DNA of 64,000 nucleotides. It comes from Patescibacteria group bacterium. Its GTDB lineage: Bacteria; Patescibacteriota; Microgenomatia; JAMCYU01. A model generated the notes under the pieces. It had not been told where the DNA came from, ran no database searches, and saw only the letters and a list, made by a program, of their open reading frames with translations. Where the stretch lies: assembly GCA_023473585.1 (NCBI GenBank), contig JAMCYU010000004.1:66033-130032 (forward strand), in the 5' to 3' direction. Shown one piece after another: positions 3,851-63,886 of the stretch. Position numbers and translations under genes: made by a program. Within the stretch, counting starts at the first letter, position 1; each line of letters begins with the position of its first letter.

Positions 3851-3944
3851 CTGTTTTTCCTGCTTTTTGGTCGTTTTAGGCGAAGGCCCCTCTTTTCCTC
3901 TTTTTAAGCTTGCTTATGGAAGTCAAAAAGACTAAAATCCTCTT

Positions 3945-4367
3945 ATGAAAATGGAAATTTCGGCCGGAGGTGTTATCTATACTCAAAAAGGCCCAAAAAA
4001 AATTAAAATTCTGCTTTTGCTGGATAAGAATAATCATTGGACATTCCCTAAGGGTTTAATTGAAAAGGGCGAAGAAAAGATCGAAGCGGCCAGAAGAGAA
4101 ACCAAAGAAGAGGTCGGACTGCAAAGATTAAAGATGAAGGTTGCTCTTTCGCCTATTAAATATTGGTATAAATGGAAAGAACAAATTGTCAGAAAAACCG
4201 TCTATTATTTTCTTTTTGAAGGAGACGAGACCGAAAAACTTAAACCTCAGGAAGAAGAAGGGATTAAAGAAGTCAAGTGGGTTTCTCTTGAGAAGACGTT
4301 TGAAATCATCGGTTATCCCAAAACAAACGAGCCGATTTTAAAAGAAGTTAAACAACAATTGCTTTAA
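3945..4367 (+). CDS. NUDIX hydrolase
   Basis: Nudix box GLIEKGEEKIEAARRETKEEVGL (Gx5Ex7REUxEExGU). Confidence 0.7.
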   Translation: MKMEISAGGVIYTQKGPKKIKILLLLDKNNHWTFPKGLIEKGEEKIEAARRETKEEVGLQRLKMKVALSPIKYWYKWKEQIVRKTVYYFLFEGDETEKLKPQEEEGIKEVKWVSLEKTFEIIGYPKTNEPILKEVKQQLL

Positions 4368-4372
4368 AATCT

Positions 4373-4747
4373 ATGGATTGGTTTTTTGCCTCAGACATTC
4401 AAGAGTCTATTAAAAAAATCGTGGCTTCGTTAATGATGGGTCATGTTGATCCCAAAAGAGTGATTTGTTTCCGAAGCCAGGGTTCCAAAGCTCACGCCAG
4501 GGCCAGGATTTGGAGTTTGCCGCGCGTTTGGCAAAAAGCTTTAAATCTGCCCGCCCACTACGTTTTGGAGGTTATTTCGGAAAAGTTTGATCATTTGTCC
4601 GACGATGACCAAAAGCGCATTCTTATTCATGAACTTTTGCATATTCCTAAAAACTTTTCCGGCTCGCTTCTTCTCCACCGGGGAAGAGGAAGAAGGATTG
4701 ACACGCACAAAGTAGAGCAACTTTTTCAGGAATATAAAAAAAGATGA
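4373..4747 (+). CDS. putative Zn-metallopeptidase-like protein (HExxH)
   Basis: LIHELLHIP contains HExxH; small soluble protein. Family assignment uncertain. Confidence 0.35.
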   Translation: MDWFFASDIQESIKKIVASLMMGHVDPKRVICFRSQGSKAHARARIWSLPRVWQKALNLPAHYVLEVISEKFDHLSDDDQKRILIHELLHIPKNFSGSLLLHRGRGRRIDTHKVEQLFQEYKKR

Positions 4748-5439
4748 TCACGATTCTTCACGGCGAAAATCATTTGGCTTCAAGAAACCAGCTCGAAGCT
4801 TTGAAAAAAGAACAAAAGAACGAGGAAATTCTTTCTTTGGACGGCAAAAAAATCACCCTAAATGATTTAATCCAGGCTCTTGAAGCGCCTTCATTACTAG
4901 CTTCCTCCCGACTGGTGGTTATCGAACGCTTCTTCTCTTTGAAAAAAAGCGAAGAAAAACAAAAGATGATCACCTATCTTGTCGAAAATCAAAAAAAGGT
5001 CAATTTGCTTCTTTGGGAAGATGAGGAAGTTGCCAAAACCACGCTTGCTCAATTTTCTGGCGCGAAAATCCTGCTTTTTAAGAATGAGGGCGTTATTTTT
5101 AAGTTTTTAGAATCTCTAAAACCAGGTTGCACAGAAGAAATGCTTGCCCTTCTTAAAAAAGCCTTAGATTCGGAAATTCCCGAAATAATTTTTTCTTTGC
5201 TTATCAGACAATTAAGGTTACTTTTGTTGATGACCACTGAAACAAAAGAAGAAGCAGAGGATCTTAAGCGTTTGGCAACATGGCAAAAGGAAAAATTGGC
5301 AAGGCAAGCCAAGGACTTTACCCAGAAACAATTAATAAGCTCTTACCATGAACTTTTGGAAATTGATTCTCAGCAAAAAACCGGCCAAAATGCCTTTGAT
5401 TTAAAGAAAACTCTTGAAATTTTTATCATGAACCTCTAA
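4744..5439 (+). CDS. holA: DNA polymerase III delta subunit-like (short)
   Basis: N-terminus ILHGEN..L....LDGKKITLNDLIQALEAPSLLASSRLVVIE resembles HolA (YLLYGEE...FD..E.SL.EL.EALETLPFFSDRRLVIL). ATGA overlap with the upstream gene. Confidence 0.45.
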   Translation: MITILHGENHLASRNQLEALKKEQKNEEILSLDGKKITLNDLIQALEAPSLLASSRLVVIERFFSLKKSEEKQKMITYLVENQKKVNLLLWEDEEVAKTTLAQFSGAKILLFKNEGVIFKFLESLKPGCTEEMLALLKKALDSEIPEIIFSLLIRQLRLLLLMTTETKEEAEDLKRLATWQKEKLARQAKDFTQKQLISSYHELLEIDSQQKTGQNAFDLKKTLEIFIMNL

Positions 5440-5449
5440 GATAAAAATA

Positions 5450-6835
5450 ATGGAAAAAATCGACCCTGCAATTTTTAAGGCCTATGACATCAGGGGCATT
5501 TACCCCGTCGCTTTGGACGAAGACTTGGCCTATAAAATCGGCCGCGTTTTTGCCCAAATGATTAAAAAAGAAAACCCCGGCAAAAAGATCGTCATTGTTC
5601 TGTCGCGCGATATGCGCTTATCTTCTCCTTCTTTGCACGAGCAAGTTCTCCAGGGTTTTGCCGACGAAGAGGTTGAGGTTATTGATATCGGCCTGGCCTC
5701 AACGCCGCTGTTTTATTTTGCCGTCGCGACTTTTAAAGCCGACGCCGGCATGCAGATTACCGCCTCTCATAATCCTAAAGCCTATAACGGTTTTAAAATG
5801 ACCCGCCAAAAGGCCAGTCCGGTTAACGGCGATAACGGTATTTACCAAATGCGCGACGCCATTTTATCTTCAAATTTTGAGAAATTAAATAAACCCTTAA
5901 AAGTTCAAGATCGGGAGATTCTGGCTCTTTACCTTGAGCACGCGAGACAATACGTCAAAGACAAAGGGATGACCAAAAAAATTATTATTGATTCAGCCAA
6001 TGCCATGGCCGGGATTGATTTGGCTTCATTTTTCCAAAGTTTTCCCAACATAGAAGTGACTTATCTTAACCAAAAACTTGACGGTTCTTTTCCCGCCCAT
6101 GAAGCCAACCCCTTAAAAGAAGAAACCCTAGAGACTTTGAAAAAACAGGTGCTTGAGAGAAAAGCCGATTTTGGGATCGCGACGGACGGGGATGGTGACC
6201 GATATATGTTTATTGACGAGAAGGGACAATATGTCCGGTCTGACCTTGTTAATGCTCTTCTGGCCAGAAAAACGGTTACCGAGGGCAAAGGAGAACCCAT
6301 ACTTTACGATTTAAGAAGCAGCAAGGTCGTTGCGGAGGAAGTGGAAAAATACGGCGGTAGGGCTTTAAAATGCCGGGTGGGTCACTCGTTTATTAAAAAA
6401 CAAATGCGGGAAGTTGACGCTTATTTTGCCGCCGAATTATCGGGGCACTTCTACTTGGAAGTCATGCCTGATTCCTATTTTGAGTTTCCCTTATTTGTGG
6501 TCGCGAAATTAATGGAAATTCTTGAAGAGGCAAAAAAACCATTATCGGAAATGATTAAGCCTTTGAGAAAATATTTCCACACCAATGAGTTTAATTTCAA
6601 AATTGAAGATAAAGAAAAGGCCATGGCGGCCTTTGAAAAAAAATATCAAGACGGTCAACAGTTTAAGCTGGACGGTTTATCAATCGAATACCCGAGCTGG
6701 TGGTTTAACGTCCGCATGTCTAACACGGAACCCTTATTAAGGTTTAATTTGGAAAGCGACACCGAAGAAGAAATGCAAAGAAAAAAAGAAGAAGTCAGCC
6801 AAATAATTTTATCTTTAGGCGGCGAAAAAGAGTAA
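5450..6835 (+). CDS. phosphomannomutase/phosphoglucomutase
   Basis: 461 aa. Active-site TASHNP motif; the whole protein is alpha-D-phosphohexomutase family-like. Confidence 0.75.
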   Translation: MEKIDPAIFKAYDIRGIYPVALDEDLAYKIGRVFAQMIKKENPGKKIVIVLSRDMRLSSPSLHEQVLQGFADEEVEVIDIGLASTPLFYFAVATFKADAGMQITASHNPKAYNGFKMTRQKASPVNGDNGIYQMRDAILSSNFEKLNKPLKVQDREILALYLEHARQYVKDKGMTKKIIIDSANAMAGIDLASFFQSFPNIEVTYLNQKLDGSFPAHEANPLKEETLETLKKQVLERKADFGIATDGDGDRYMFIDEKGQYVRSDLVNALLARKTVTEGKGEPILYDLRSSKVVAEEVEKYGGRALKCRVGHSFIKKQMREVDAYFAAELSGHFYLEVMPDSYFEFPLFVVAKLMEILEEAKKPLSEMIKPLRKYFHTNEFNFKIEDKEKAMAAFEKKYQDGQQFKLDGLSIEYPSWWFNVRMSNTEPLLRFNLESDTEEEMQRKKEEVSQIILSLGGEKE

Positions 6836-7894: not shown

Positions 7895-7926
7895 ATCTTT
7901 CTCCTTTGTCTTGCTATACTGAAATT

Positions 7927-10230
7927 ATGGAAGGAAAATTTATCCTGTGGTTTAATGAGGTAGGAAAGGATGATATTCCTTTGGTGGGCGGTAAGGGAGC
8001 TAACTTAGGAGAAATGGCTAAATTTGGTATTCCCGTTCCCGCAGGCTTTATCGTTACGGCCCAGGCCTATTTTTATTTTTTGGAGAAAGCAAATTTACGC
8101 ACGAAAATTAAGAATTATCTTTCTTCTTTAAACCTTAATGAACCCGACTCCCTGGAACAGGTCTCTTCTCATATTAAAAGACTGATTTTAACTTCTCCGG
8201 TGCCTAGGGATTTAGCGCAAGCGATCTCTGAAAATTACGCCAAACTGGGAACCTTTTTAAAACCGGCTTTAGTCGCGGTCCGTTCTTCGGCCACCGCCGA
8301 AGATTTGCCGACCGCCTCTTTTGCCGGTCAACAGGAAACCTTCTTAAATATCTCCGGCGATGCTTCGGTCGTGGAAAAAGTACGCCAGTCCTGGGCCTCT
8401 CTTTTTACTCCCCGGGCGATTTTTTATCGCGAAGAGCAAAAATTTGATCATTTTAAAGTCGGAATTGCGATCCCTATACAGAAAATGATTCAATCGGAAA
8501 CTTCCGGCATCATGTTTACGATTGATCCTCTCTCTTCGGATAAATCAAAAATTATTATCGAAGCGATTTATGGCCTAGGCGAAATGATCGTTCAGGGACA
8601 AGTTATTCCCGACCGCTACGAGATTTCTAAAAAAGACCTTAAAATTTTAAAAAAAGATATCTCGACACAAGATAAAATGCTTGTTGGGCAAAAACATCAG
8701 AATAAGCTTTTGGAAGTGCCTAAAAAAAATAGGAGTTTACAAAAAATAAAAGATCGGGAAATTACAGAACTGGGTGTTTTGGGCAAAAAAATTGAGCGTC
8801 ATTATTTTTTCCCTCAAGACATTGAATGGGCCATTGAAAACGGGAAGATTTATATTGTCCAAACAAGACCCGTAACCACGATGGCCAGTGTTGCCAGGGG
8901 TAAAGAAGAAGCTAAAGATATTAAATTAATTAATCCAAAATTAAAACCGATTTTTACGGGCGTTGGCGCCTCACCGGGTATTGCTTCAGGGCCGGTTAGG
9001 GAAATTCATTCGCCCAAAGAAATAAATCGGGTTATTTTAGGTGATGTTTTGGTGACGGAAATGACTAATCCTGACTTTGTTCCGGCGATGAAAAAAGCCG
9101 TGGCCATTGTTACCGATCAGGGAGGCAGAACCGCCCACGCGGCCATTGTCAGCCGGGAACTGGGTATTCCTTGTGTGGTCGGCGCAAAAATCGCCACGAA
9201 GCTTCTTAAAACCGGTCAGGTGGTCACGGTCAACGGTGAAACAGGGGAAGTCTTCAGGGGCGGAATTTTGCAAAGTCAAAAAATCGCCCATGAATTTAAA
9301 AAACAAGATCAAATCTTAGCAAAAAAACACGAGATCCCCATAAAAACCGCCACGAAGATTTATCTTAACTTGGCGGAGGCAGAAAAAGTCAAAGATTTGG
9401 CGAAAATGCCGGTTGAGGGCGTGGGTTTATTGAGAGCCGAATTTGTCATGGCGCAAATCGGCATTCATCCGAAGAAAATTATTCATGATCAAAAACAAAA
9501 AATGTTTATTGAGAAACTCGCTTCTTTCCTCGCCACTTTCTGCGAGGCGTTCAGTCCTCGTCCTGTCGTTTATCGAACTTCTGATTTTAAAACCAACGAA
9601 TATCGCAATCTTACGGGCGGTCAAGATTTTGAACCCGAAGAACAAAATCCCATGATCGGTTATCGCGGCGCCTATCGCTACCGATCTGACCCGGCGGTTT
9701 TAGAATTGGAACTTGAAGCGATCAAAGAAGTTCGCAAGAAAAAAGGCTTTACCAATTTATGGTTAATGCTGCCCTTTGTCCGAACTCCGCAAGAACTTTT
9801 GGAAGTCAAAAAGATTATCGCCAGCGCCGGCCTTCTTCGGTCGCCTTCCTTTAAACTGTGGCTGATGGTGGAAATTCCCGCCAACGTGATTTTGTTGGAT
9901 AAGTTTATCGAAATGGGCATTGACGGAGTTTCGATCGGTTCTAATGATTTAACGATGTTAACCTTAGGGGTTGACCGAGACAACGCCGAACTGGCCCAGG
10001 CTTTTAACGAGCAGGACCCGGCCGTTCTTTGGGAACTAGAAAAAATTATTAAAACCTGTCATCAATATAAAATAACCTCGTCCATTTGTGGTCAGGCGCC
10101 GTCTGATTACCCTTCCTTGGTGGAAAAATTAGTACACTGGGGAATAACCAGCGTCTCGGTAAACCCCGATGCCGTAGAAAGAACCAGAGAAACGATTTAT
10201 GAAGAGGAGAAAAAATTGTGCCAAAAATAA
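7927..10230 (+). CDS. ppsA: phosphoenolpyruvate synthase (pyruvate, water dikinase)
   Basis: N-terminus LWFNEVGKDDIPLVGGKGANLGEM and phosphohistidine domain GGRTAHAAIVSRELGIPCVVG. TATACT -10 lies 6 nt before the ATG. Confidence 0.85.
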   Translation: MEGKFILWFNEVGKDDIPLVGGKGANLGEMAKFGIPVPAGFIVTAQAYFYFLEKANLRTKIKNYLSSLNLNEPDSLEQVSSHIKRLILTSPVPRDLAQAISENYAKLGTFLKPALVAVRSSATAEDLPTASFAGQQETFLNISGDASVVEKVRQSWASLFTPRAIFYREEQKFDHFKVGIAIPIQKMIQSETSGIMFTIDPLSSDKSKIIIEAIYGLGEMIVQGQVIPDRYEISKKDLKILKKDISTQDKMLVGQKHQNKLLEVPKKNRSLQKIKDREITELGVLGKKIERHYFFPQDIEWAIENGKIYIVQTRPVTTMASVARGKEEAKDIKLINPKLKPIFTGVGASPGIASGPVREIHSPKEINRVILGDVLVTEMTNPDFVPAMKKAVAIVTDQGGRTAHAAIVSRELGIPCVVGAKIATKLLKTGQVVTVNGETGEVFRGGILQSQKIAHEFKKQDQILAKKHEIPIKTATKIYLNLAEAEKVKDLAKMPVEGVGLLRAEFVMAQIGIHPKKIIHDQKQKMFIEKLASFLATFCEAFSPRPVVYRTSDFKTNEYRNLTGGQDFEPEEQNPMIGYRGAYRYRSDPAVLELELEAIKEVRKKKGFTNLWLMLPFVRTPQELLEVKKIIASAGLLRSPSFKLWLMVEIPANVILLDKFIEMGIDGVSIGSNDLTMLTLGVDRDNAELAQAFNEQDPAVLWELEKIIKTCHQYKITSSICGQAPSDYPSLVEKLVHWGITSVSVNPDAVERTRETIYEEEKKLCQK

Positions 10231-13105: not shown

Positions 13106-13132
13106 TTAAAATAATCAAAGAGGAGGTTTCAA

Positions 13133-14236
13133 ATGAAAATTACACTCTCGGTCATCAAGGCAGATATCGGTTCCATCGGCGGTCATGAATGTCCCAGTCA
13201 GGCTGTTTATGAGACAGTCAAAGACTATATTGAAAAGAACAGTCAGGGGTTGCTGATTGATTATTTCCAAACTTTTTTAGGCGACGATATTGCTCTTTTA
13301 ATGACCCATACCAAAGGCGAGGGAAACTCTGATATTCATAAACTGGCCTGGGATAGTTTTAAGGCGGGGACGGAGGTCGCAAAAAAACAGGGTCTTTATG
13401 GAGCCGGACAAGATTTGCTGAAAGAATCTTTTTCGGGCAATGTTAAAGGGATGGGCCCGGGTGTTTGCGAAATGGAAATTGAAGAAAGACCTAACGAGCC
13501 TTTTGTTTTTTTCCAGGCCGATAAAACCGACCCGGGAGCTTTTAATCTGCCGCTTTATTTAAGTTTTGCTGATCCGATGTATTCGCCGGGGCTTTTTATT
13601 TCCAAATCAATGAGGAAGGGATTCGAGTTTACGGTCATGAACGTTTACCATACCGAAGGCGATAAAATTGTGACTTTAAAAGCACCGGAAGAACTTTACA
13701 GTATTGCTGTCTTACTAAGGGATTTAGAAACTTATGTTATTGAATCGGTGCACTCGCGCGACAACGGCGAAATTGCCGCCGTGGTTTCCACTTCAAGGCT
13801 TCATAATATCGCCGGAACTTATGTGGGAAAAGATGACCCCGTGGCTTTGGTTCGGGCGCAAAAATTATTTCCCGATACGGGTGAAATTCTTTCTCCTTAT
13901 GCCATCGGTTATTTTGTCGCCGGCGACAATCGGGGAAGCCACAATACGCCTTTAATGCCGATTAAAACCCGCTCGACGGTGGCTTATTTTGACGGGCCGG
14001 CCTGTGTTTCGGCATTGGGCTTTTGTGTCCATGAAGGAAAATTGACCGAACCCGTGGATCTTTTTGATCATCCGGTTTGGGAAAGAGTCCGCAGCAAAAT
14101 TTCCGACAAAGCCATCGAGCTTAGGAAACAGGGATTTTTTGGTGCGGCGATGCTGGGCATGAATGAGCTTGAATATACGGAAATCGTTGATCATATCAAA
14201 GAGCTCGACAGTCGTTTTAAAGTAAGAAATAAATGA
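13133..14236 (+). CDS. fbp: fructose-1,6-bisphosphate aldolase/phosphatase (archaeal-type bifunctional FBP A/P)
   Basis: MKITLSVIKADIGSIGGH N-terminus is the hallmark of the class V FBPase/aldolase family. SD GAGGAGG upstream. Confidence 0.7.
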   Translation: MKITLSVIKADIGSIGGHECPSQAVYETVKDYIEKNSQGLLIDYFQTFLGDDIALLMTHTKGEGNSDIHKLAWDSFKAGTEVAKKQGLYGAGQDLLKESFSGNVKGMGPGVCEMEIEERPNEPFVFFQADKTDPGAFNLPLYLSFADPMYSPGLFISKSMRKGFEFTVMNVYHTEGDKIVTLKAPEELYSIAVLLRDLETYVIESVHSRDNGEIAAVVSTSRLHNIAGTYVGKDDPVALVRAQKLFPDTGEILSPYAIGYFVAGDNRGSHNTPLMPIKTRSTVAYFDGPACVSALGFCVHEGKLTEPVDLFDHPVWERVRSKISDKAIELRKQGFFGAAMLGMNELEYTEIVDHIKELDSRFKVRNK

Positions 14237-15939
14237 TCCAGGTCGTTAAGAAACCAAAAAATCCGAAAATTGTTCCTAATCTTACTGATTATACAAAAGT
14301 CTATAGCCATTTTTTATGGAAGAATTATCAGCAAGAACTGAAATGGTTTGCCCCCGATAAAATTAACGCCGCCTACAACGCCGTTGACCGTCATTTGGGA
14401 ACCTGGAGAAAGAATAAAATTGCCCTCTATTGGGAAGGTGAAGACGGCAGCCAAAAAAAATACACTTTTGAAGAAATAGCCAATCTCTCTTCCCAGTATG
14501 GTCGTTTTTTAAAAAAACTCGGCGTTAGGCGTGGGGACAGAGTTTTTATTTTTCTGCCACGGGTTCCGGAACTTTACTTCTCTTTTTTGGGAATCTTAAA
14601 AATCGGGGCGATCGCCGGAGCTCTTTTTTCCGCTTTTAAAGAACAGGCTCTTTATGACCGCTTGGATAATAGCGGTGCCAGCATTTTAATTACCAACAGT
14701 AAGCTTAAAAACCGTGTTGAAAAAATCAGGCAGAAATTAAAAAATCTCAAACACATTCTGGTCATTGATGATCCCCAGTTTCAGGATAAATTTAAAAAAA
14801 CCTCGTCTAAACTTCGTGTTTTGGAAATGGATCCGCAGGATCCGGCTTTCATGCTTTACACTTCGGGAACAACGGGGAAACCGAAAGGTGTCGTTCATCG
14901 GCATTTAGCCATTCTTCAGGAACATCTTACGGCCAAATGGGTTTTAGATCTTAAAGATACCGATACTTATTGGTGTACGGCCGATCCGGGTTGGGTAACG
15001 GGAATTGCCTACGAAATTCTTGGTTCCTGGTCAAACGGCGTGGCGACCATCGTTTATGAAGGCCGCTTTGATCCTAAGCGTTGGTACCAAATCTTAGAGA
15101 AATACAAAGTGACTATCTGGTATACCGCTCCTACGGCCATCAGAATGCTCATGTCGGCCGGCAGTCATCTTTTTAAAAACCATAACTTAACAAGCTTAAG
15201 ACATTTAGCCTCGGTGGGTGAACCTTTAAATCCCGAAGCGATTAGGTGGGGTCTTAAAGTTTTTAATCTTCCGTTCCATGACAATTGGTGGCAAACGGAA
15301 ACGGGCGGCATTTGCATTGCCAATTATCCGTGTCTTGATATCAAACTTGGCTCTATGGGTAAGCCGGTGCCGGGCGTTGAGGCGGGAATTGTTGATGATC
15401 ATGGCAAAGAACTTCGTCTTGGCCAGGAAGGAAATTTAGCCTTAAGACCTGGGTGGGCTTCAATGATGATTAAAATTTGGCGCCGGCCGAAAAAATATAA
15501 AAGTTATTTTACTCACGGTTGGTATTTAAGCGGGGATCGGGCCTATAAAGATAAAGACGGTTATTTTTGGTTCATCGGCAGAGCCGACGACGTGATTAAA
15601 ACCGCAGGAGAGCGGGTTGGACCGTTTGAAGTTGAATCTTCCCTGGTCGAACATGACGCCGTTGTCGAGGCCGGCGTTATCGGCAAACCCGATAAAATCA
15701 GAGGTGAAATTATTAAGGCTTTTGTCGTTTTAAAAAAGGGTATTTCGCCTTCAGAAAAATTAAAAGAAGAGCTTTCTTTGTATGTGAAGACGCACTTGGC
15801 CGGTCATGCTTATCCTCGGGAAGTTGAATTTATTGATAAGCTCCCCAAAACCCGCTCGGGGAAAATCATGCGCCGCGTTCTTAAGGCGAAAGAGCTTGGT
15901 CTGCCGGTAGGCGACCTTTCGACTCTTGAAGAATATTAA
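14233..15939 (+). CDS. acs: acetyl-CoA synthetase (AMP-forming)
   Basis: MLYTSGTTGKPKGVVHRH AMP-binding motif; YWCTADPGWVTGIAYEILG resembles the ACS core. Confidence 0.7.
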   Translation: MIQVVKKPKNPKIVPNLTDYTKVYSHFLWKNYQQELKWFAPDKINAAYNAVDRHLGTWRKNKIALYWEGEDGSQKKYTFEEIANLSSQYGRFLKKLGVRRGDRVFIFLPRVPELYFSFLGILKIGAIAGALFSAFKEQALYDRLDNSGASILITNSKLKNRVEKIRQKLKNLKHILVIDDPQFQDKFKKTSSKLRVLEMDPQDPAFMLYTSGTTGKPKGVVHRHLAILQEHLTAKWVLDLKDTDTYWCTADPGWVTGIAYEILGSWSNGVATIVYEGRFDPKRWYQILEKYKVTIWYTAPTAIRMLMSAGSHLFKNHNLTSLRHLASVGEPLNPEAIRWGLKVFNLPFHDNWWQTETGGICIANYPCLDIKLGSMGKPVPGVEAGIVDDHGKELRLGQEGNLALRPGWASMMIKIWRRPKKYKSYFTHGWYLSGDRAYKDKDGYFWFIGRADDVIKTAGERVGPFEVESSLVEHDAVVEAGVIGKPDKIRGEIIKAFVVLKKGISPSEKLKEELSLYVKTHLAGHAYPREVEFIDKLPKTRSGKIMRRVLKAKELGLPVGDLSTLEEY

Positions 15940-15963
15940 TTTTTCTCCTAAAATAGATCAATT

Positions 15964-16584
15964 ATGCTGGAAACATTAGGGACTTTTGTTATCAATATCA
16001 TTTCCGACACCGGCTACCTGGGAATTTTTCTTCTTATGGCTCTTGAGTCGGCCTGCATCCCTATTCCTTCGGAGGCTACCATGCCTTTTTCGGGTTCACT
16101 GGTGGCCTTGGGCAGGTTCAATTTATGGATGGTCGTCCTAATCGGCGCTTTGGGCAATTTGGCCGGATCGCTTTTGGCTTATGCCGTGGGTTATTGGGGT
16201 CAGGATAAAATTGTGAGAATCTTGATTGTCAAATACGGCCGTTATTTTTTAATTTCCGAACACGAATATGATCGGGCGCAAAAATGGTTTTTAAAATACG
16301 GAGAGATCATTGTTTTTGCCAGCCGCATGCTGCCTGTCGTCCGGACCTTCATTTCCCTGCCGGCCGGTATCGCCAAGATGAATTTAACCAAATTCATTCT
16401 CTACACGACCATCGGTTCTTTTTTCTGGTCGCTGGTTTTAACCTCTGTCGGCATGATTTTAGGCCAAAATTGGCAGTCTTTGGAAGTCTATTTTCGGCAA
16501 TTTGATGTTTTGATTGTGGCAGGACTGACGGTTGGGGGGTTGTTTTATCTTTACCACAAATACAAGCAATTAAAAAAGCGTTAA
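15964..16584 (+). CDS. DedA family membrane protein
   Basis: 206 aa polytopic membrane protein with a DedA/VTT-like pattern. Confidence 0.6.
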   Translation: MLETLGTFVINIISDTGYLGIFLLMALESACIPIPSEATMPFSGSLVALGRFNLWMVVLIGALGNLAGSLLAYAVGYWGQDKIVRILIVKYGRYFLISEHEYDRAQKWFLKYGEIIVFASRMLPVVRTFISLPAGIAKMNLTKFILYTTIGSFFWSLVLTSVGMILGQNWQSLEVYFRQFDVLIVAGLTVGGLFYLYHKYKQLKKR

Positions 16585-16585
16585 A

Positions 16586-17250: not shown

Positions 17251-17266
17251 ATCATCAAACTATGAT
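17251..17266. promoter_or_regulatory. candidate SOS operator palindrome ATCAT-N6-ATGAT
   Basis: Palindrome sits in the spacer between the uvrB -35 (ATGTCA, 17243-17248) and -10 (TAAAAT, 17266-17271), in the divergent lexA/uvrB intergenic region. Confidence 0.3.
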
Positions 17267-17277
17267 AAAATAGAACA

Positions 17278-25572: not shown

Positions 25573-25602
25573 AATAGGATCTTTGTTAGCATTAAGGGGT
25601 TC

Positions 25603-46378: not shown

Positions 46379-46392
46379 TAGACTAAAAATTA

Positions 46393-47619: not shown

Positions 47620-47641
47620 GAGAAGTGTTATACTTGTCTCC

Positions 47642-48793: not shown

Positions 48794-48813
48794 AAAATGT
48801 TATAATTCCCCCC

Positions 48814-49689: not shown

Positions 49690-49700
49690 TACGGCCGTTT

Positions 49701-50288
49701 ATGGCTACGCCAAAGAAAAAACAGACCATCGGCAATAAAGATTCTGCTCTTGAGCAATTGCGTGATTTGGGTACGGATGTCGTCAAAAGTGCGCAAAGTG
49801 ACCTCGTGGCCGGCGTGGCCGGTGGTATTCTCAACGATTTGTTTGCCCCAAAAAGTCAAGACTTAAAACCGAATCAGGAAGTTTTTGTCTCTTCAGAAAC
49901 AACTTTGCGACCAAGACAACCGGAGGGACAAAGACCGGAGTTTGTTTTATTTACCGCCCAAGAAGCTAATTTGGCCCATGAAGTTGAGGCCGTCAGAACC
50001 GAACTGAAAAGAACCGTTGAGGAATTAAAGGCATTAAATACGGCCGTCATTGAAGTTGAGAAGGCTGTAGCTTTAACTCCTGTTAAAGCCGGCAAATATC
50101 ATCTGTCCTTTTTCGGAAAGCTCCAAGCCATTTTAAGACTTTTCCGTCAGCAGGTTTCCGAATCCCGAGTTTGGTTGGAAGAGACCTTTGCGAAAAAAAG
50201 AAAGAAACAATATTGGTCCATGTTTAAAAAACACGGCACGACTTTCGGTTTATCTTCAGAAAGAGCTCTGGCCAGTCAAGCTGGTTAA
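49701..50288 (+). CDS. hypothetical protein
   Basis: 195 aa, higher GC than neighbours, no recognisable motifs. Confidence 0.3.
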   Translation: MATPKKKQTIGNKDSALEQLRDLGTDVVKSAQSDLVAGVAGGILNDLFAPKSQDLKPNQEVFVSSETTLRPRQPEGQRPEFVLFTAQEANLAHEVEAVRTELKRTVEELKALNTAVIEVEKAVALTPVKAGKYHLSFFGKLQAILRLFRQQVSESRVWLEETFAKKRKKQYWSMFKKHGTTFGLSSERALASQAG

Positions 50289-53383: not shown

Positions 53384-53410
53384 ACCTACGTTAGACGAAC
53401 GTAGGTTTTT
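53384..53410 (+). terminator. intrinsic terminator after rplT
   Basis: CCUACGUU-agacg-AACGUAGG followed by UUUUUU. Confidence 0.6.
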
Positions 53411-53429
53411 TGTTGTAAAATAGTAAAGT

Positions 53430-54455
53430 ATGGAAGAAAAATTAATGGCTCTTAAAAACGAGGCAATCGCCATCATCTGGCAAACCAAAGATTTGGCTGA
53501 CTTGGAAAATTTACGAATAAAATACTTTGGAAAAAACGGTGAGTTAACCAACACCCTTAGAGAGTTGCCTAAACTTGAAATTACCGAACGCCGGCGCTTG
53601 GGGGTTTTGGCCAATGACGTTAAAACCGCAATCGAACACGCCATAACTGAAACTAAGGAAAAAATTTTAGGAGAAGAAAAGAAAGAGGAATGGTTTGACG
53701 TCACTAAACCCGGCTTCAAATTTCCCTTGGGCCATCTTCATCTTATTTCCCAAACGATTGCGGAAATTGACCTCATTTTTGCAAAAATCGGCTTTACCAG
53801 AGTGGCTTATCCTGAGGTCGAATGGGACTGGTACGCTTTTGAGGGTTTAAATATGAGCCAAAACCATCCGGCCAGGGACGAATGGGAAACTTTTTTTATT
53901 GAAAATTTGTTTCATCAAAAATACGGCGTCGGTCTTTTAACGCCTCACACGTCTTCGGGGCAACTTCGGGAAATGGAGAGAAAGAAAAAACCACCGATAA
54001 GGATGCTCAATATCGCCAAATGTTACCGACGACAATCGGATGTTTCTCATGCCCCCATGTTTTATCAGTTTGAGGGTTTAGTTGTTGATCAAAACATTAA
54101 TATCACCCATCTTAAGGGAACCTTGGATTATTTTGTCAAAGAATTTTTTGGAAAGACTAGGAAAACGAGGATTCGTCCCTTTCATTTTCAATTTACCGAA
54201 CCTTCTTTTGAAGTTGACGTCACCTGTATGGTTTGTCAGGGAAAGGGTTGCCGAGCCTGTAAAGAGGGTTGGATGGAAATAGGGGGCGCGGGAATGGTTC
54301 ATCCGACGGTTTTGCGAAACGGCGGTTTTAATCCCAAACTTTATAGCGGTTTTGCTTTCGGTTGGGGAGTCGAAAGGGTTCTGATGATGAAATACGGCAT
54401 TCCCGATATCAGACTTTTATTTAACGGCGACTTACGATTTTTAAACCAATTTTAA
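53430..54455 (+). CDS. pheS: phenylalanine--tRNA ligase alpha subunit
   Basis: Class II motifs; C-terminus GFAFGWGVERVLMMKYGIPDIRLLFNGDLRFLNQF. Confidence 0.9.
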   Translation: MEEKLMALKNEAIAIIWQTKDLADLENLRIKYFGKNGELTNTLRELPKLEITERRRLGVLANDVKTAIEHAITETKEKILGEEKKEEWFDVTKPGFKFPLGHLHLISQTIAEIDLIFAKIGFTRVAYPEVEWDWYAFEGLNMSQNHPARDEWETFFIENLFHQKYGVGLLTPHTSSGQLREMERKKKPPIRMLNIAKCYRRQSDVSHAPMFYQFEGLVVDQNINITHLKGTLDYFVKEFFGKTRKTRIRPFHFQFTEPSFEVDVTCMVCQGKGCRACKEGWMEIGGAGMVHPTVLRNGGFNPKLYSGFAFGWGVERVLMMKYGIPDIRLLFNGDLRFLNQF

Positions 54456-56902: not shown

Positions 56903-59554
56903 TTAAAGCGGGGACGGCGTCGGCGCCGGGGTGGGGACAGGGGTCGGCGTCGGCGCCGCCCAATCCCAGGGAACAAAAACACCAAATTTAATTTCCGCAT
57001 CAGAAGCGTTGCCTTTGGAATCCTGGGCTTTAATTTTAAGAGTGTGTGTTCCTTTAGCCATGTTTATTCTTTCGGAAAATTTATTGGTGGAAAGCGTCCG
57101 ATTGACTAAACCATCAATAATTATTTCCAGTTTGACAATTTCTCCAACCGCCGAATAAGCTTCGGTTTCAACCAAGACATCATTGTCGTTTATCTGCGAC
57201 CGATCGCCGGGACTCTTAATTTTGACAATGGCTCGATCAAGTTTATCCTGCGAAGTTTCTTTCGGGGGATGATATTTGCTGTCGGTATTTGAAGCTAACC
57301 AAGCGTCAATGCCCTCCTGCCAGCGATTTTTCCCGTCGGTTGAGACCGGGTCCTGTTCAGTTAAGACAATAAAGTCTTTCTCCTCGTATTCTCCCATGGC
57401 AATTTCACTTTGATTAGCTAATTTACCATTATTTTTGGAAATTTTAAGTTTTTGATAAATTGCGGCTGGCTGTGTCGGTTCGGTACCGGAGATAAAATAT
57501 TCACTTCTGGTCGGAAAACCCTCTTTAGGCAACCCTCCACCAAAAGCATCGATCGTTGAGGCAACAACATTTGCGGGAACGATAGGTGGCTCGTCCGGTT
57601 TATCTTTTAAAATAAAGCGCATAATTTTATTCCAAATTGGCGCGGCGCCGGTAACCCCGGAAGCCAAAGAAGGATGCATGGCCGAATTATCGTTATTGCC
57701 AACCCACACGCCAACCACAAAACTGGGAGTAAAACCAACAGTCCAATTGTCTTTTTTATCATCGGTCGTTCCGGTCTTGACCGAGACGGTTTTCCCCGGC
57801 ACAACCAACCAGGAACTTGGACCAAAAATTTCTTTTCTGGCTTCATTGTCTAAAAGAATATGAGAAATTAAAAAAGAGACTTCCGGTGACAAAACTTTTT
57901 GTCCGGAGGTCGGTTTCGTTTCGAAAAGAGTTTTACCGCGCGAATCCTGAACTTTAAGAATAGAGGTCGGTTCATGCCGAACGCCGCTTTGGCCAAAAAC
58001 GCCGAAAGCGCTGGTTAGATCTAAAAGCTTAACTTCGCCGCCACCAAGGGTTAAAGCCAAACCGAAACGGCTCAAGTTTTCATTCGTCGGCTGAAGCGTT
58101 GTCAACCCCATATCATAAGCGGTCACTAAAGCTTCTTTAACCCCGACCATCGCCAACATCTTAACGGCCGCAATGTTAATTGAATTAGCCAAAGCAAATC
58201 TGACCTGAACCGGACCTCTGAATTTCCCGTCATAATTTTTAGGAATATAGTCGGGCTTATTCTCGCCACCAGGGAAATGAGTTTCCGTATCCATTAAAAG
58301 CGTGGCCGGTGTGTATCCTTTCTGAAAAGCGGTCGCGTAAATAATCGGTTTAATCGCCGAGCCCGGCTGGCGCAATCCCTGGGTCACGACGTTAAATTTA
58401 AAACCAGAAGAATCCGTCGCATTATAGTCCTTAGAACCAACCATCGCCAAAATCTGACCGGTTTTAGGATCCAAAACCGCGGCGGCGCCGTTGGTGACCT
58501 TAAGACTTTTAAGTTTCCCAATCTCTTCCTTGACGATTTTTTCCGCCTCTTCCTGAATCTTCCAATCTAGTGTCGTTGTGACTTTAAGACCGCCCTGTTC
58601 GATCATCTTCTCGCCGAATTGGGCAATCAATTTTTCCTTAACGTACATGACAAAATGAGGCGCCCGAAAATTGGTATCGGTTTCAGAAAACTTAACGTTA
58701 GTAATGTCTTTTTTGGCCTGTTCTTCCTGATCTTTTGAGATATAACCGTCCTCACGCATTCTTCGCAAAACCTGTCCGGTCCGCCAAATATAGGCCTTAG
58801 GATCCGAACCGAAAAGGGGAGAGTATTTGGTCGGCGCGTTCGGCAGTCCGGCCAAAATGACCGACTCTAAAAAACTTAAATCTTTGGTGTGTTTGCCAAA
58901 ATAGGTTTGGGAGGCTGTCTCGACCCCCCAAGCCGTCCCGCCATAGGGAGCCTCGTTTAAATACATCTGCAAAATCTCGTCTTTGGAATATTTTCTTTCA
59001 ATCTGAATCGCCAAAATAAACTCTTTAATTTTCCGAGGCAAGGTCCGTTCGCTTGTTAACAAGACGTTTTTCACCAGCTGTTGAGTTAAGGTCGAACCGC
59101 CCTGAAGGTTTCTAAAAACAAAGATGTTAACCAAGGCCCTCCCCATACCGCTAAAGGAAAAACCCTGATGTTTATAAAATTCTTTATCCTCAATGGCCAC
59201 GGTCGCCTGACGCAAAGATTGGGGCATATCGGCAAAAGAAACCGGAACCCGATTTTGATCCCCGTAAATGTCGTATAAAACCTCGCCGTTTTTGTCGGTA
59301 ATAACCGTTGATAAACCTTCAACCCGATGAACCTTATCCGGACGGGGCAAATCTTTACTGTACCAGGCAAAAAGGAAAACCACGAAAAAAACTAAAGCCA
59401 AACTTCCCAAAAGAACCAGGGTGCTTAACTGCGACCAGCGCTTGATCCGTTCCAGTCTTGAAGAAGAACCGAAATGGGAGCGTTTCCAGCGTTTTTCCTG
59501 AAAAACATCAAGCATATCTTCACTTGGAGAAATTTTGGTTTCGATTTTCTCCAT
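56903..59554 (-). CDS. class A penicillin-binding protein (PBP1A-like) with C-terminal Ig-like/Pro-Thr-rich extension
   Basis: GT51 motifs EDKEFYKHQGF and GGSTLTQQ; transpeptidase SAIKP, SIN, KTGTT; C-terminal TPTPVPTPAPTPSP. Confidence 0.85.
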   Translation of the reverse strand: MEKIETKISPSEDMLDVFQEKRWKRSHFGSSSRLERIKRWSQLSTLVLLGSLALVFFVVFLFAWYSKDLPRPDKVHRVEGLSTVITDKNGEVLYDIYGDQNRVPVSFADMPQSLRQATVAIEDKEFYKHQGFSFSGMGRALVNIFVFRNLQGGSTLTQQLVKNVLLTSERTLPRKIKEFILAIQIERKYSKDEILQMYLNEAPYGGTAWGVETASQTYFGKHTKDLSFLESVILAGLPNAPTKYSPLFGSDPKAYIWRTGQVLRRMREDGYISKDQEEQAKKDITNVKFSETDTNFRAPHFVMYVKEKLIAQFGEKMIEQGGLKVTTTLDWKIQEEAEKIVKEEIGKLKSLKVTNGAAAVLDPKTGQILAMVGSKDYNATDSSGFKFNVVTQGLRQPGSAIKPIIYATAFQKGYTPATLLMDTETHFPGGENKPDYIPKNYDGKFRGPVQVRFALANSINIAAVKMLAMVGVKEALVTAYDMGLTTLQPTNENLSRFGLALTLGGGEVKLLDLTSAFGVFGQSGVRHEPTSILKVQDSRGKTLFETKPTSGQKVLSPEVSFLISHILLDNEARKEIFGPSSWLVVPGKTVSVKTGTTDDKKDNWTVGFTPSFVVGVWVGNNDNSAMHPSLASGVTGAAPIWNKIMRFILKDKPDEPPIVPANVVASTIDAFGGGLPKEGFPTRSEYFISGTEPTQPAAIYQKLKISKNNGKLANQSEIAMGEYEEKDFIVLTEQDPVSTDGKNRWQEGIDAWLASNTDSKYHPPKETSQDKLDRAIVKIKSPGDRSQINDNDVLVETEAYSAVGEIVKLEIIIDGLVNRTLSTNKFSERINMAKGTHTLKIKAQDSKGNASDAEIKFGVFVPWDWAAPTPTPVPTPAPTPSPL

Positions 59555-59583
59555 TCTTTAAGTTTATCAGAACAAGGCTCTAT

Positions 59584-59612
59584 TTGACAAGTCAAAAAGC
59601 AATCGGTATAAT
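59584..59612 (+). promoter_or_regulatory. consensus sigma70 promoter
   Basis: TTGACA, 17 nt spacer, TATAAT. Confidence 0.5.
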
Positions 59613-59619
59613 TAAACCC

Positions 59620-59703
59620 ATGTTGTCAACCACCCAAACTCTTTTTTGGTTTTATTATACCTTCCAAAAAGGGAGGTTGGTTGACGTGGTTATAGAACAC
59701 TAA
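59620..59703 (+). CDS. putative leaderless leader peptide (27 aa, aromatic-rich) of a racemase-tyrS attenuator
   Basis: ATG 7 nt after the -10. Encodes MLSTTQTLFWFYYTFQKGRLVDVVIEH. Codons 17-22 form the hairpin ACCUUCC-AAAAA-GGGAGG. Confidence 0.35.
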   Translation: MLSTTQTLFWFYYTFQKGRLVDVVIEH

Positions 59704-61726: not shown

Positions 61727-61728
61727 CG

Positions 61729-61833
61729 ATGAATAAATTCAGAAAATATCACTGGGTTTGGACAATCATTGTTATTTTTGCCTCGCTGGCTTTAATCTTA
61801 ACCTCCTTTTTACCTTTGCTAACCTTGCGTTAA
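61729..61833 (+). CDS. hypothetical 34-aa single-TM peptide
   Basis: MNKFRKYHWVWTIIVIFASLALILTSFLPLLTLR. Starts 2 nt after the tyrS stop; no SD. Confidence 0.25.
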   Translation: MNKFRKYHWVWTIIVIFASLALILTSFLPLLTLR

Positions 61834-61855
61834 AACCTTGTGCTATACTAGCCTC

Positions 61856-63886
61856 ATGGAGCTCGCAACGCCCGTTCAAAACGTCTACATGGTCGGTCCG
61901 ACTTACGCAAAAAGACTGGAAAAATTAGGTCTTAAAACCGTCGAGGATTTGCTGTTTCATTTTCCCCACCGCTACGAAGACTATTCTTTAATTTCCAAAA
62001 TTAACCAGATTAAACCCGGAGAAACAGTTACCATTCAGGGAATCGTTAACGAAATTAAAAATGAATACACGAAAAACGGCAAAAAAATCCAAAAAGCCTT
62101 AGTTTCTGACGGGACAAAAATTTTAGAAGTTACCTGGTTTAATCAGCCTTTTTTGATAAGAACGATTAAAGTGGGGGAGACCTACAATTTTTCCGGCAAA
62201 GTCAATTGGTTCGGCCATAAAGTAAGCTTAATCAGCCCCGAATACGAACAGGTCTCGGGTCAAAGATATGAAACTTTGGGCTCAATTCATACCGGCAGAC
62301 TCGTTCCCATCTATTCGGAAACTTACGGCGTTACCTCCAAATGGTTGCGTTCAAGAATTGCCCCCCTTTTAAATGAATACCTGCCTTTATTTACCGAATA
62401 TCTGCCGGATAAGGTTATCAGTAAAAATCAACTTTTGGCTTACCAAAAAGCGATTAGGCAAATTCATTTCCCCGATAATCAATATTTCGCGGATGCGGCT
62501 AAAAAGAGACTGGCTTTTGACGAATTATTTCTTATTCAACTGGCCTCTCTTAAAAGAAAAAAAAGGCAAGAAAAAGAAAAAGTTAAATATCAATTTAAAA
62601 TAGACCCGTACCAAACCTCAATCGAAACCTTTATCAAAAAATTACCGTTTGTCTTAACTAGAGCGCAACAAAGAGTCGTACGGGAGATATTTCATGATCT
62701 TGCTCAACCCAAACCTATGAATCGTCTGCTTGAGGGCGACGTCGGTTCCGGAAAAACGGTGGTCGCCGCAATCAGCATGTATTTTTCTTATCTTAACGGC
62801 TGTCAGTCCCTTTTGCTGGCACCGACCGAAATTTTAGCCAACCAGCATTTTAAGACCCTGAAAGACCTGCTTTCTCCTTTCGGCGTGAAAGTTAATTTGC
62901 GAAGCGGAAGCTTCAAAAAAGAGGAAGAATTTGATATTTTAGTCGGGACTCACGCTCTTTTATCGGAAAAAATTAAGATTCAGAAATTAGGCCTGGTTGT
63001 TGTTGACGAACAACACCGCTTCGGGGTTGAGCAAAGAAAACAAATTCGAGAGAAAGGAGTTAATCCGCATCTTTTGTCGATGACCGCCACCCCTATTCCC
63101 CGAACCGTAGCCTTGACTTTATACGGCGATCTTGATCTGTCTTTTTTAGACGAAATGCCCAAGGGTCGAATGAAGGTCAAAACCTGGGTTGTCCCCTCAT
63201 TAAAAAGAGAGGCGGCTTATGCCTGGATAAAAAAACGGGTAAAAGGAACCAAAGAACAGGCTTTTATTATCTGCCCCCTAATTGAAGAGTCGGAAACTTT
63301 AGTTTCCGTTAGGGCGGCCACTCAGGAATTTGAAAGTCTGCAAAAGAAAATTTTTCCGGATCTTCGCTTGGGCCTTCTTCATGGCCGGATGAAAGCTCGG
63401 GATAAAGATTTGGAAATTGAACGCTTTCGGTCGGGCAAATTGGATATTTTGGTTGCCACGCCGGTCGTTGAGGTCGGGATTGATATTCCCCAGGCAACCA
63501 TCATGATGATTGAGGGAGCGGAAAGATTCGGCTTGGCGCAACTGCATCAATTAAGAGGTCGGGTCGGCCGGGCAAATCTTGTCTCTTATTGTCTTCTTTT
63601 TAGTGAATCCGAGCAAAATCAAAGACTTAAGGCCATGGAAAAAATCCATATCGGCGCCAATTTGGCCGAAGTCGACCTGCAGATGCGCGGTCCGGGTGAA
63701 GTTTTAGGAACCAAACAACACGGCATCCCTGATTTGAGAGTTGCCTCCTTAACCGATAAGCTTTTGATTACCGAAACGAGGTTGGCCGCTCAAGAAACCA
63801 TCAATGAAGATTTGTCTTTGAAGAAATTTCCCCTCTTGAAAGAAAAGCTTGAAAGATTTACAATAAAAGCGGTTTCATCTGATTAG
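61856..63886 (+). CDS. recG: ATP-dependent DNA helicase RecG
   Basis: N-terminus MELATPVQNVYMVGPTYAKRLEKLGLKTVEDLLFHFPHRYED; helicase motifs GDVGSGKT, DEQHRFG. Confidence 0.9.
   Translation: MELATPVQNVYMVGPTYAKRLEKLGLKTVEDLLFHFPHRYEDYSLISKINQIKPGETVTIQGIVNEIKNEYTKNGKKIQKALVSDGTKILEVTWFNQPFLIRTIKVGETYNFSGKVNWFGHKVSLISPEYEQVSGQRYETLGSIHTGRLVPIYSETYGVTSKWLRSRIAPLLNEYLPLFTEYLPDKVISKNQLLAYQKAIRQIHFPDNQYFADAAKKRLAFDELFLIQLASLKRKKRQEKEKVKYQFKIDPYQTSIETFIKKLPFVLTRAQQRVVREIFHDLAQPKPMNRLLEGDVGSGKTVVAAISMYFSYLNGCQSLLLAPTEILANQHFKTLKDLLSPFGVKVNLRSGSFKKEEEFDILVGTHALLSEKIKIQKLGLVVVDEQHRFGVEQRKQIREKGVNPHLLSMTATPIPRTVALTLYGDLDLSFLDEMPKGRMKVKTWVVPSLKREAAYAWIKKRVKGTKEQAFIICPLIEESETLVSVRAATQEFESLQKKIFPDLRLGLLHGRMKARDKDLEIERFRSGKLDILVATPVVEVGIDIPQATIMMIEGAERFGLAQLHQLRGRVGRANLVSYCLLFSESEQNQRLKAMEKIHIGANLAEVDLQMRGPGEVLGTKQHGIPDLRVASLTDKLLITETRLAAQETINEDLSLKKFPLLKEKLERFTIKAVSSD

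Follow-up and report, generated by a model that had tools for sequence, protein, structure and literature searches.

The DNA analysed here, referred to as the window, is a stretch of 64 kb (64,000 nucleotides, nt) from contig JAMCYU010000004.1 (positions 66,033 to 130,032) of the assembly GCA_023473585.1, which is assigned to a Patescibacteria group bacterium. The element in question is a hexamer resembling the -10 box of bacterial promoters (TANNNT) that recurs a few nucleotides ahead of the ATG of many of its genes. The window has a GC content of 41% and contains around 60 tightly packed genes, nearly all of them on the plus strand, together with 15 tRNAs; a scan of the window with Rfam at the gathering threshold returned tRNAs only. 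TGA is used as a stop codon, for example in the DegT, MBL and MacB genes. Trigger factor, the product of tig, has 100% identity to a protein (locus tag M1575_01655) of a metagenome-assembled genome labelled Patescibacteria group bacterium. The next named relatives belong to Microgenomates and Candidatus Gottesmanbacteria, and uvrB and PGM agree with this placement. For uvrB itself no exact record was found, and a search of genome contigs with it gave relatives that are all of 61% identity or less and carry mixed labels. The trigger factor without a peptidyl-prolyl isomerase (PPIase) domain, the presence of a DUF5660 protein and the compact layout are consistent with a member of the candidate phyla radiation (CPR).

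A first-pass annotation of the sequence had listed nine genes with a -10 hexamer directly upstream of the initiation codon but without a Shine-Dalgarno (SD) sequence. All nine pairs of hexamer and ATG were found where they had been placed. If the gap is defined as the number of nucleotides between the end of the hexamer and the ATG, it measures 6 nt in the NUDIX, ppsA, uvrB, SBP, MBL and recG genes and 7 nt in rarA, tig and a short leader open reading frame (ORF). GGAG, GAGG and AGGA are all absent from the 20 nt upstream of each of the nine starts. The hexamers had also been described as often extended by TG, and this dinucleotide occupies the extended position in six of the nine, compared with a TG frequency of 0.049 (binomial P ~1e-6). 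The SBP site is the doubtful member of the list, as it is not conserved and its TA belongs to the secG stop codon.

The start codons themselves are in agreement with protein family profiles. Position 1 of the Trigger_N profile aligns with residue 1 of the tig product and position 3 of RecG_wedge with residue 8 of the recG product. For the NUDIX, MBL and ppsA products, profile positions 5, 2 and 2 align with residues 6, 9 and 18, respectively. In the case of uvrB and rarA the N-termini of the orthologues concur; the uvrB product begins MMFKL and those of its relatives begin MxFxL.

Spacing was counted on a set of 59 window genes, in which every long non-overlapping ORF was taken by rule to begin at its first ATG, and 2000 dinucleotide-preserving shuffles served as the control. 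A genome-wide comparison of the distance between -10 box and start with shuffled sequence had been put forward as a check on the nine sites; within the window this comparison gives an excess at gap 6, and the related contigs described below show one over their baseline. Twelve of the 59 genes have a hexamer at gap 6, compared with a shuffle mean of 1.7 (maximum 8), and none of the 2000 shuffles reaches 12. For gaps of 6-7 nt the count is 16 genes against 3.4, and for gaps of 6-9 nt it is 24 against 6.6, values that are again not reached in any shuffle. The peak is sharp: gap 5 is empty and gap 6 holds 11-12 genes. Other offsets, between 12 and 30 nt, hold around 1.7 genes each, which gives P ~1e-7 for gap 6, and the TANNNT rate over all 1479 ATGs of the window is 2.4%. 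Seen from the promoter side, the window contains ten perfect TTGACA-N16-18-TANNNT sites. At five of them an ORF of 60 or more amino acids (aa) has its ATG 6-11 nt downstream; a sixth has the ATG of the leader ORF 7 nt on.

By these signals the 59 genes fall into 20 with a gap of 6-8 nt, nine with a gap of 9-11 nt, 14 that are SD-led and 16 that have neither signal. All 20 genes of the 6-8 nt class start with ATG. The non-ATG starts lie outside it and comprise a GTG at the SD-led eno and a TTG at hyp97 and at infC, both of which have neither signal. The genes with a -10 box had been termed operon-leading, which is a loose description: seven of the 20 lie only 4-32 nt past another gene on their strand, and their promoters fall within the end of that gene. 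The rate of sites varies with the intergenic gap, being highest at 16-100 nt (33-36%) and 17% at 15 nt or less. The hexamers of PGM and SBP take their TA from the stop codon of the gene upstream. The companion statement, that operon-internal genes carry strong SDs, is accurate for fbp, rplT, the racemase gene and tyrS (AGGAG or GAGGAGG) and does not extend to internal genes in general, given the 16 with neither signal. Most of those 16 overlap or nearly touch the preceding gene, or adjoin a tRNA, and the overlap or near-contact suggests that they are translated by coupling to the preceding gene.

A comparison set was drawn from 80 metagenome contigs related to the window through rarA, with 751 mechanically called genes. 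The hexamer stands at gap 6 in 13% of these genes (98 sites), over a baseline of ~3%, and in 3.7% at 80 phylogenetically broad uvrB loci. The first-ATG rule used for the related contigs biases a test of start-codon usage there. The controls for promoter features were hexamers lying further upstream. Relative to these controls the 98 sites more often have TG at -15/-14 (34% vs 8%), A at hexamer position 4 (59% vs 42%) and at position 5 (68% vs 31%), a pyrimidine at -1 (76% vs 46%) and TTG in the -35 window (22% vs 6%). The pyrimidine before the A of the ATG matches the classic preference of transcription start sites (TSSs) for pyrimidine at -1 and purine at +1. An SD sequence and the -10 geometry occur together in nine genes of the related contigs, where independence of the two signals would predict around 32.

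These data bear on the possibility that the pattern is an artefact of composition or annotation, in which upstream or in-frame TAA and TAG stops combine with AT-rich spacers to mimic TANNNT, or in which the wrong ATGs have been chosen. Nine of 11 gap-6 hexamers in the window do have TAA or TAG as their first triplet; at SBP, TGase and PGM this triplet of the hexamer is the stop codon of the gene upstream; and in-frame TAA or TAG at codon -4 is raised (10.3% vs ~5.5%). However, -10 boxes at that position would themselves lead to such a surplus of stops, both the shuffle and the all-ATG controls fall far below the observed count, and the starts concur with Pfam profiles and conserved N-termini. 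In addition, 84 of the 98 related-contig sites have no upstream gene within 15 nt, and the 44 sites whose hexamer does not start with TAA or TAG show the TG extension in 34% and a pyrimidine at -1 in 77%. The promoter features are unchanged after dropping either the TAA/TAG hexamers or the genes with a neighbour within 15 nt. This persistence largely refutes a stop-codon or first-ATG artefact, which is regarded as extremely improbable.

An AT-rich motif in this position could also act at the level of translation, on leadered or polycistronic mRNA and without any promoter, in the manner of the non-SD ribosome-binding site (RBS) of the Bacteroidetes ('group B') or of an S1-binding enhancer. The AT-rich genome, the seven sites that lie 4-32 nt downstream of a same-strand gene and the weaker enrichment that remains in genes within 15 nt of their neighbour (10% at gap 6) would all fit such a signal. 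The information in the motif, however, resides at T1, A2 and T6, in the TG one base upstream and in the TTG ~17 nt further, which correspond to contacts of RNA polymerase and not to rRNA pairing, and several sites have a perfect TTGACA at a spacing of 17-18 nt. The motif is also absent from the coupled internal genes and excludes SD, whereas group B motifs stand before internal genes as well as all others (PMC6028130); here 16 of the 59 genes, mostly coupled ones, are without it. A signal confined to translation is therefore judged highly improbable.

The geometry was followed in syntenic loci from three related genomes, whose tig genes have 93%, 69% and 67% identity to that of the window. The loci of the relatives carry L labels, with L161 (the closest relative) and L166 (the relative at 93% identity) both belonging to GCA_040960625.1. 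TGnTATAAT stands 6-8 nt ahead of the tig ATG in all four genomes, even though the upstream neighbour changes. In two of them it is rarA, at distances of 20 and 73 nt, and in the other two an inserted gene, which is on the minus strand in one case and RidA-like in the other; the spacer varies too. The MBL site is kept in both orthologues (TGcTAAAAT in L161 and TGaTAAGAT in L164), with gaps of 6, 6 and 6 nt. The gaps at rarA across four genomes are 7, 7, 10 and 7 nt, and of 45 starts of metagenome rarA orthologues 26 have TANNNT at 6-8 nt and four more at 9-11 nt. For uvrB the geometry is found in three of four orthologues, including TAGAAT with a gap of 6 nt in L167, and uvrB loci with like geometry occur in Shapirobacteria, other Patescibacteria, Chloroflexi, Omnitrophota and Bifidobacterium. 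The ppsA geometry is present in two of five (TTGATT-17-TAAACT-6-ATG in L170; L168 and L169 differ), and the NUDIX gene has TAAAAT with a gap of 7 nt in L168 and does not keep the site in L169. The SD class is retained in a similar way, in four of four orthologues of FBPase (-10 geometry in 0/4), five of eight of eno and two of two of secG. The initiation class is inherited with the gene while the local sequence changes.

Taken together, the sharp peak at 6 nt, the promoter hallmarks, the exclusion of SD and the geometry of the orthologues favour a sigma-70-type promoter with its +1 at the ATG, and so lend in silico support to the proposal of the first-pass annotation that the transcripts are leaderless and begin with the A of the ATG. 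We infer from the sequence, with a probability of roughly 0.8, that these genes are transcribed from the -10 boxes in such a way that the mRNA begins at the ATG, both the TSS and the mode of translation being deduced. The promoters would mostly be of the extended -10 type, TGnTAnnnT, with the -35 element weak or absent. RNA polymerase would start at the A of the ATG, 7-8 nt past the hexamer, to give an mRNA with a 5'-terminal AUG and no SD, and the 70S ribosome or a 30S initiation complex would then bind the 5' AUG directly. Roughly a quarter to a third of the genes carry a -10 box 6-8 nt ahead of the ATG, and leaderless initiation would be one of three modes in the genome, beside the SD-led genes and those with neither signal. 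For the genes with gaps of 9-11 nt, leaders of 2-4 nt are predicted.

The latter genes raise the question of whether the promoters are real but the TSS lies a few bases before the ATG, so that the mRNAs would have leaders of 1-5 nt without SD and would not be strictly leaderless. A fixed distance from -10 box to TSS, combined with an ATG of variable position, would fit the shoulder at 8-11 nt as well as the 7-nt gaps of rarA, tig and the leader ORF, and the same reading would suit the DUF5660, holin-like and 6PGL-like genes, all of which have a perfect TTGACA as -35, as well as uvrA, with TGgTATAAT 13-14 nt from the ATG in three genomes, and uvrB in L166, where the gap is 9 nt. It is nevertheless considered unlikely, since the peak is sharp at gap 6 with nothing at gap 5 and the pyrimidine at -1 and purine at +1 fall exactly at the ATG; it amounts, moreover, to a refinement of the leaderless explanation and not to a separate mechanism. 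An mRNA whose leader does not exceed 5 nt is translated in much the same way as a leaderless one.

A number of observations weigh against leaderless transcription from these sites. Around five of the 20 genes in the 6-8 nt class are expected by chance, and the matches at the TGase (TAGTTT), GT2 (TAAGTT) and GTPase (TAATTT) genes are probably of chance origin. The -35 elements are weak at most sites, and a generic two-hexamer promoter scan gave no overall enrichment (45 vs 32.5 and 33 vs 34.6 expected); the signal is the position relative to the ATG, not the number of promoters. Read-through mRNAs would hold the starts of the seven genes 4-32 nt behind a same-strand gene internally and without an SD. 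Several sites are also labile: the TATACT of ppsA sits 41 nt upstream in L168, the first ATG of uvrB is replaced by ACA in L166 to leave the gap of 9 nt, and the SBP hexamer is TAGAAA in L166 with nothing in its place in L167 (0/2 orthologues).

Table 1. Start-site features of the window (positions count from its first letter; numbers between motifs are spacers in nt, and the distance in nt after the hexamer is the gap to the ATG).
Feature	Position	Strand	Elements
6PGL/glucosamine-isomerase-like gene, near-leaderless	501..542	+	TTGACA-18-TATATT, 9 nt, ATG 540
metK	2449		SD-led
NUDIX	3933..3947	+	TAAAAT, 6 nt, ATG 3945
PGM/PMM	5414..5452	+	TTGAAA-17-TAAGAT, 7 nt, ATG 5450; hexamer TAA is the holA stop codon
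ppsA	7912..7929	+	TGcTATACT, 6 nt, ATG 7927; -35 TTGAAT 7891-7896 within PGI 3' end
eno	10218		SD-led, GTG start
FBPase_3, SD-led contrast	13115..13135	+	GAGGAGG 7 nt ahead of ATG 13133
VTT/DedA gene, near-leaderless	15926..15966	+	TTGAAG-17-TAAAAT, 9 nt, ATG 15964
uvrB	17263..17280	+	TGaTAAAAT, 6 nt, ATG 17278; divergent from lexA
holin-like gene, near-leaderless	25564..25605	+	TTGACA-17-TGtTAGCAT, 10 nt, ATG 25603
SBP_5	27221..27235	+	TAGAAT, 6 nt, ATG 27233; TAG is the secG stop codon; doubtful
DUF4349 gene	29931..29968	-	TTGACA-17-TATCAT, 6 nt, ATG 29933
dTDP-sugar isomerase-like gene	35633..35647	+	TAAAAT, 6 nt, ATG 35645; hexamer within DegT 3' end
NAD-dependent epimerase	39153..39167	-	TAAAAT, 6 nt, ATG 39155
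MBL (metallo-beta-lactamase)	40384..40401	-	TGcTAAAAT 40401-40393, 6 nt, ATG 40386
hypothetical 260-aa gene	46356..46395	+	TTGACG-17-TGaTAGACT, 8 nt, ATG 46393
rarA	47626..47644	+	TGtTATACT, 7 nt, ATG 47642; GC-rich hairpin 47579-47595 upstream
tig (trigger factor without PPIase domain)	48798..48816	+	TGtTATAAT, 7 nt, ATG 48814; 20 nt past rarA stop
DUF5660 gene, near-leaderless	49661..49703	+	TTGACA-18-TATAAT, 10 nt, ATG 49701; predicted leader ~3 nt
rplT	53009		SD-led
pheS	53392..53432	+	TAAAAT, 8 nt, ATG 53430; directly past rplT terminator 53383-53407
PBP1	59552..59590	-	TTGTCA-18-TGaTAAACT, 6 nt, ATG 59554; -35 overlaps that of divergent leader promoter
leader ORF	59584..59703	+	TTGACA-17-TATAAT, 7 nt, ATG 59620; 27 codons, aromatic-rich, MLSTTQTLFWFYYTFQKGRLVDVVIEH
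racemase	59770		SD-led
tyrS	60491		SD-led
recG	61841..61858	+	TGcTATACT, 6 nt, ATG 61856

As Table 1 shows, the list of nine holds apart from SBP, and it had missed at least ten further sites as well as the class with gaps of 9-11 nt. Among the additional sites, that of pheS is kept in three of three orthologues (TATAAT with a gap of 7 nt in L162, TATCAT with a gap of 6 nt in L164), with gaps over the genomes of 8, 8, 7 and 6 nt, and in each genome pheS follows a hairpin and T-run at the end of rplT. The PGM geometry is found in two of three (TAAGAT-6-ATG in L168 and TAGAAT-8-ATG in L170) and the site of the 260-aa hypothetical gene in three of four orthologues. Of the near-leaderless genes, the DUF5660 gene keeps its site in L161 and L162, while the locus L167 has TTGACA-17-TACCAT-11-ATG at the holin-like gene and TACAAT-6-ATG at the VTT/DedA gene. 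At uvrA (19551-19576) the box is likewise without an SD, and its distance from the ATG predicts a leader of ~7 nt, which would place the gene between the leaderless and leadered classes.

The genes lexA and uvrB are divergent and lie ~65 nt apart (17205-17285). Their -35 elements, TTGACA for lexA and ATGTCA for uvrB, overlap, and the spacer is kept in L166 and L167. A palindrome, ATCAT-N6-ATGAT (17251-17266), overlaps the -10 box of uvrB and is a candidate LexA operator on what would be a leaderless SOS gene.

Two genes that have neither an SD nor a -10 box begin close behind a tRNA. The ATG of thrS (50412) is 3 nt past the discriminator base of tRNA-Val (A, 50408; region 50335-50414), a tRNA without an encoded CCA. 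The second gene, a hypothetical one of 504 aa, has its ATG (41944) 10 nt past tRNA-Leu (region 41852-41946). A promoter-like TTGAAT-17-TAAAAT (50295-50323) lies ahead of tRNA-Val. Both arrangements are kept in L161. The thrS genes of L162 and L164 are longer by 11 aa and are SD-led. In the related contigs L089 (~7346) and L106 (~11834), starts stand 1 nt and 5 nt past the annotated tRNA end. These two cases are independent and concern real genes, one HlyD-like and the other a methyltransferase gene. The geometry, which is the basis of this reading, hints that some mRNAs become leaderless or nearly so by processing of the tRNA 3' end and not from a promoter, a suggestion that is put forward tentatively and held to be rather unlikely. 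In having start codons directly past tRNA ends, an arrangement known here by its geometry, the genes resemble the tRNA punctuation of mitochondria, to which they would, if the suggestion is true, be a bacterial counterpart; no bacterial precedent for tRNA-punctuated mRNAs was found in the literature searched.

The promoter of the leader ORF (TATAAT 59607-59612) is the best in the window. The ORF is rich in F, W and Y (LFWFYYTF), and within the leader region (59620-59769) duplicated CCAAAAAGGGAGGTT segments allow alternative 1:2, 2:3 and 3:4 pairings. A U-tract terminator (59727-59753) precedes the Asp/Glu-racemase-family gene and tyrS, and the fold of the leader has a z-score of -2.95. It is plausible that the leader is a ribosome-mediated attenuator that responds to aromatic codons and is read from a leaderless transcript. 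The short aromatic ORF, the alternative pairings and the U-tract terminator are as in the trp and phe leader-peptide attenuators, here with the ATG 7 nt past a consensus promoter. Unlike those systems, the element is known from sequence alone, and in Rfam it reaches 26.5 bits with the Phe leader family and 24.6 bits with the Trp leader family, both below threshold and mainly through its terminator. Both the leader ORF and the racemase gene are deleted in L161, which therefore provides no comparative support. Leaderless leader ORFs have been reported in mycobacteria.

Other genes of the window have long leaders. A glucosaminidase-like gene (ATG 41291, SD-led) has the perfect promoter TTGACA-17-TGaTATAAT (41078-41106) followed by a leader of ~180 nt (41078-41290, plus strand), with counterparts in L161 (2307-2485), L164 (1851-2084) and L162 (452-694). 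Its first hairpin and a U7 tract are near-invariant in the four genomes, helices further on contain compensatory changes at 16 of 53 pairs among three sequences, and the fold z-score is -5.7; no Rfam match was obtained even at E<=1. The leader is a candidate for an undescribed cis-regulatory or small RNA. Upstream of metK (window 2105-2448) lies a 353-nt leader with the promoter TTGACA-17-TAACAT (2105-2133) and a terminator (2402-2421) just before the SD. It contains a match to the SAM-I riboswitch (2273-2368) of 19.5 bits, where the gathering threshold is 44.4; in three relatives the leader of metK reaches 44-49 bits with SAM-I. The window copy is thus probably a diverged SAM-I riboswitch that is missed by the standard Rfam scan.

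The window also contains five exact copies of ATGAGYGAAACGAATTAAT, where 0.08 would be expected by chance, within a module TTGATATAATGAGYGAAACGAATTAATCAAAG, in place of which TTGTATAATAATG is found in the copy at 3551. The copies are situated at 3551-3582 (plus strand), at 37246-37367 (minus strand, three tandem units of 47 nt) and at 39745-39777 (minus strand), upstream of a gene for an 83-aa protein resembling EF-Tu domain 2, a DRG/Obg-like GTPase gene and tRNA-Arg, the last copy overlapping the MBL stop codon. An extended -10 box and ~23 conserved nt, which are predicted to be transcribed first, make up the module. It looks like a strong promoter cassette reused for leadered, translation-related transcripts, and upstream of the 83-aa gene it is not conserved in L168 or L169.

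Public gene calls in the relatives over-extend the N-termini of genes predicted to be leaderless. The call for ppsA in L166 gives 779 aa and starts from an upstream TTG, with an overlap into PGI; rarA is called at 395 aa compared with 383 aa, and thrS at 598 aa from a TTG within tRNA-Val. Public lengths of uvrB range from 651 to 713 aa, a spread which hints at differing choices of start. Gene callers that favour SD sequences or the longest ORF would misplace starts in this lineage, and in CPR metagenome-assembled genomes there would be a systematic risk of error for N-termini, for signal peptides and for regulatory elements between genes.

Three further loci concern the annotation of starts and frames in the window itself. 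The start of infC (52130-52200) in the ORF list is a TTG at 52196, but the IF3_N profile begins there at position 14 and the frame is open upstream. A GGAGGA (52130-52135) is followed after 6 nt by ATC 52142, and the codons ATC CAA AAG are kept in the relatives, which suggests an SD-led, non-canonical AUC start overlapping the 3' end of thrS. It resembles infC of E. coli, which has an autoregulated start of the AUU type. Between infC and rplT (~52690-52860) there is an L35 (rpmI)-like frame (…RFKITKNGKIIRGRQMGRHLR…) that is too short for ORF lists. Finally, the HlyD/membrane-fusion gene (43463-44512) appears to be split into ORFs of 79 aa and 238 aa. Its counterpart in L161, L162 and L164 is intact, a single gene of 343-349 aa that comes immediately behind the 504-aa gene. 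The split could reflect a frameshift, a pseudogene or a fault in the assembly.

The mechanism of leaderless initiation is itself already known, and the analysis reveals no new one; the lineage and the range of GC content appear to be new. A search for leaderless genes in Patescibacteria/CPR (including Saccharibacteria, TM7x and Parcubacteria) found no published description, although it was incomplete and an earlier mention is possible. In the one TSS set for CPR bacteria that was found cited, an RNA-seq set of Nanosynbacter lyticus, the distance from -10 box to TSS is described as variable (PMC12641261). Leaderless initiation is probably a major mode throughout the Microgenomates-like Patescibacteria, so that a deep-branching lineage of low GC and reduced genome would join the short list of bacteria relying heavily on it. 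This bears on the evolution of translation initiation and on how compact genomes fit promoters without intergenic space: judging by the present sites, promoters could routinely lie within the 3' end of the preceding gene, with its stop codon sometimes supplying the TA of the hexamer. The rule TGnTAnnnT, 6-8 nt, ATG would provide a cheap predictor of promoters and starts and should be useful for the design of expression constructs in the few cultivable CPR bacteria.

Among known systems, the closest are the 'TA-led' genes, in which the first T of TANNNT is ~12 nt ahead of the start site (Zheng et al., 2011; PMC3160421), and 'group C' of GeneMarkS-2, in which a Pribnow box lies 6-8 nt from the start of first genes, with SD elsewhere, and which is common in Actinobacteria and Deinococcus-Thermus (PMC6028130). 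Group C genomes that use genetic code 11 are reported to be almost all of high GC content (MetaGeneMark-2 preprint). The RBS of Bacteroidetes group B is also an AT-rich motif near the start of genes without SD; it occurs ahead of every gene and so cannot be a promoter, whereas the motif of the window has promoter features and excludes SD and coupled genes. The low GC and reduced genome are shared with Mycoplasma, a group C member that uses code 4 and in which 30-60% of transcripts have a promoter box at around -10 relative to the start. Mycoplasma differs in belonging to another phylum, and the window, unlike it, reads TGA as stop. With the TA-led and group C genes the window has in common TANNNT at a gap of 6-8 nt, the lack of SD at those genes, SD-led genes elsewhere in the genome and a share of ~20-40% of genes. 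It differs from them in its host, a Microgenomates-like member of the Patescibacteria/CPR at 41% GC, and in the form of the promoter, for here the middle of the hexamer is informative (TAAAAT, TATAAT), the box is often TG-extended and many promoters are situated within the 3' end of the preceding gene.

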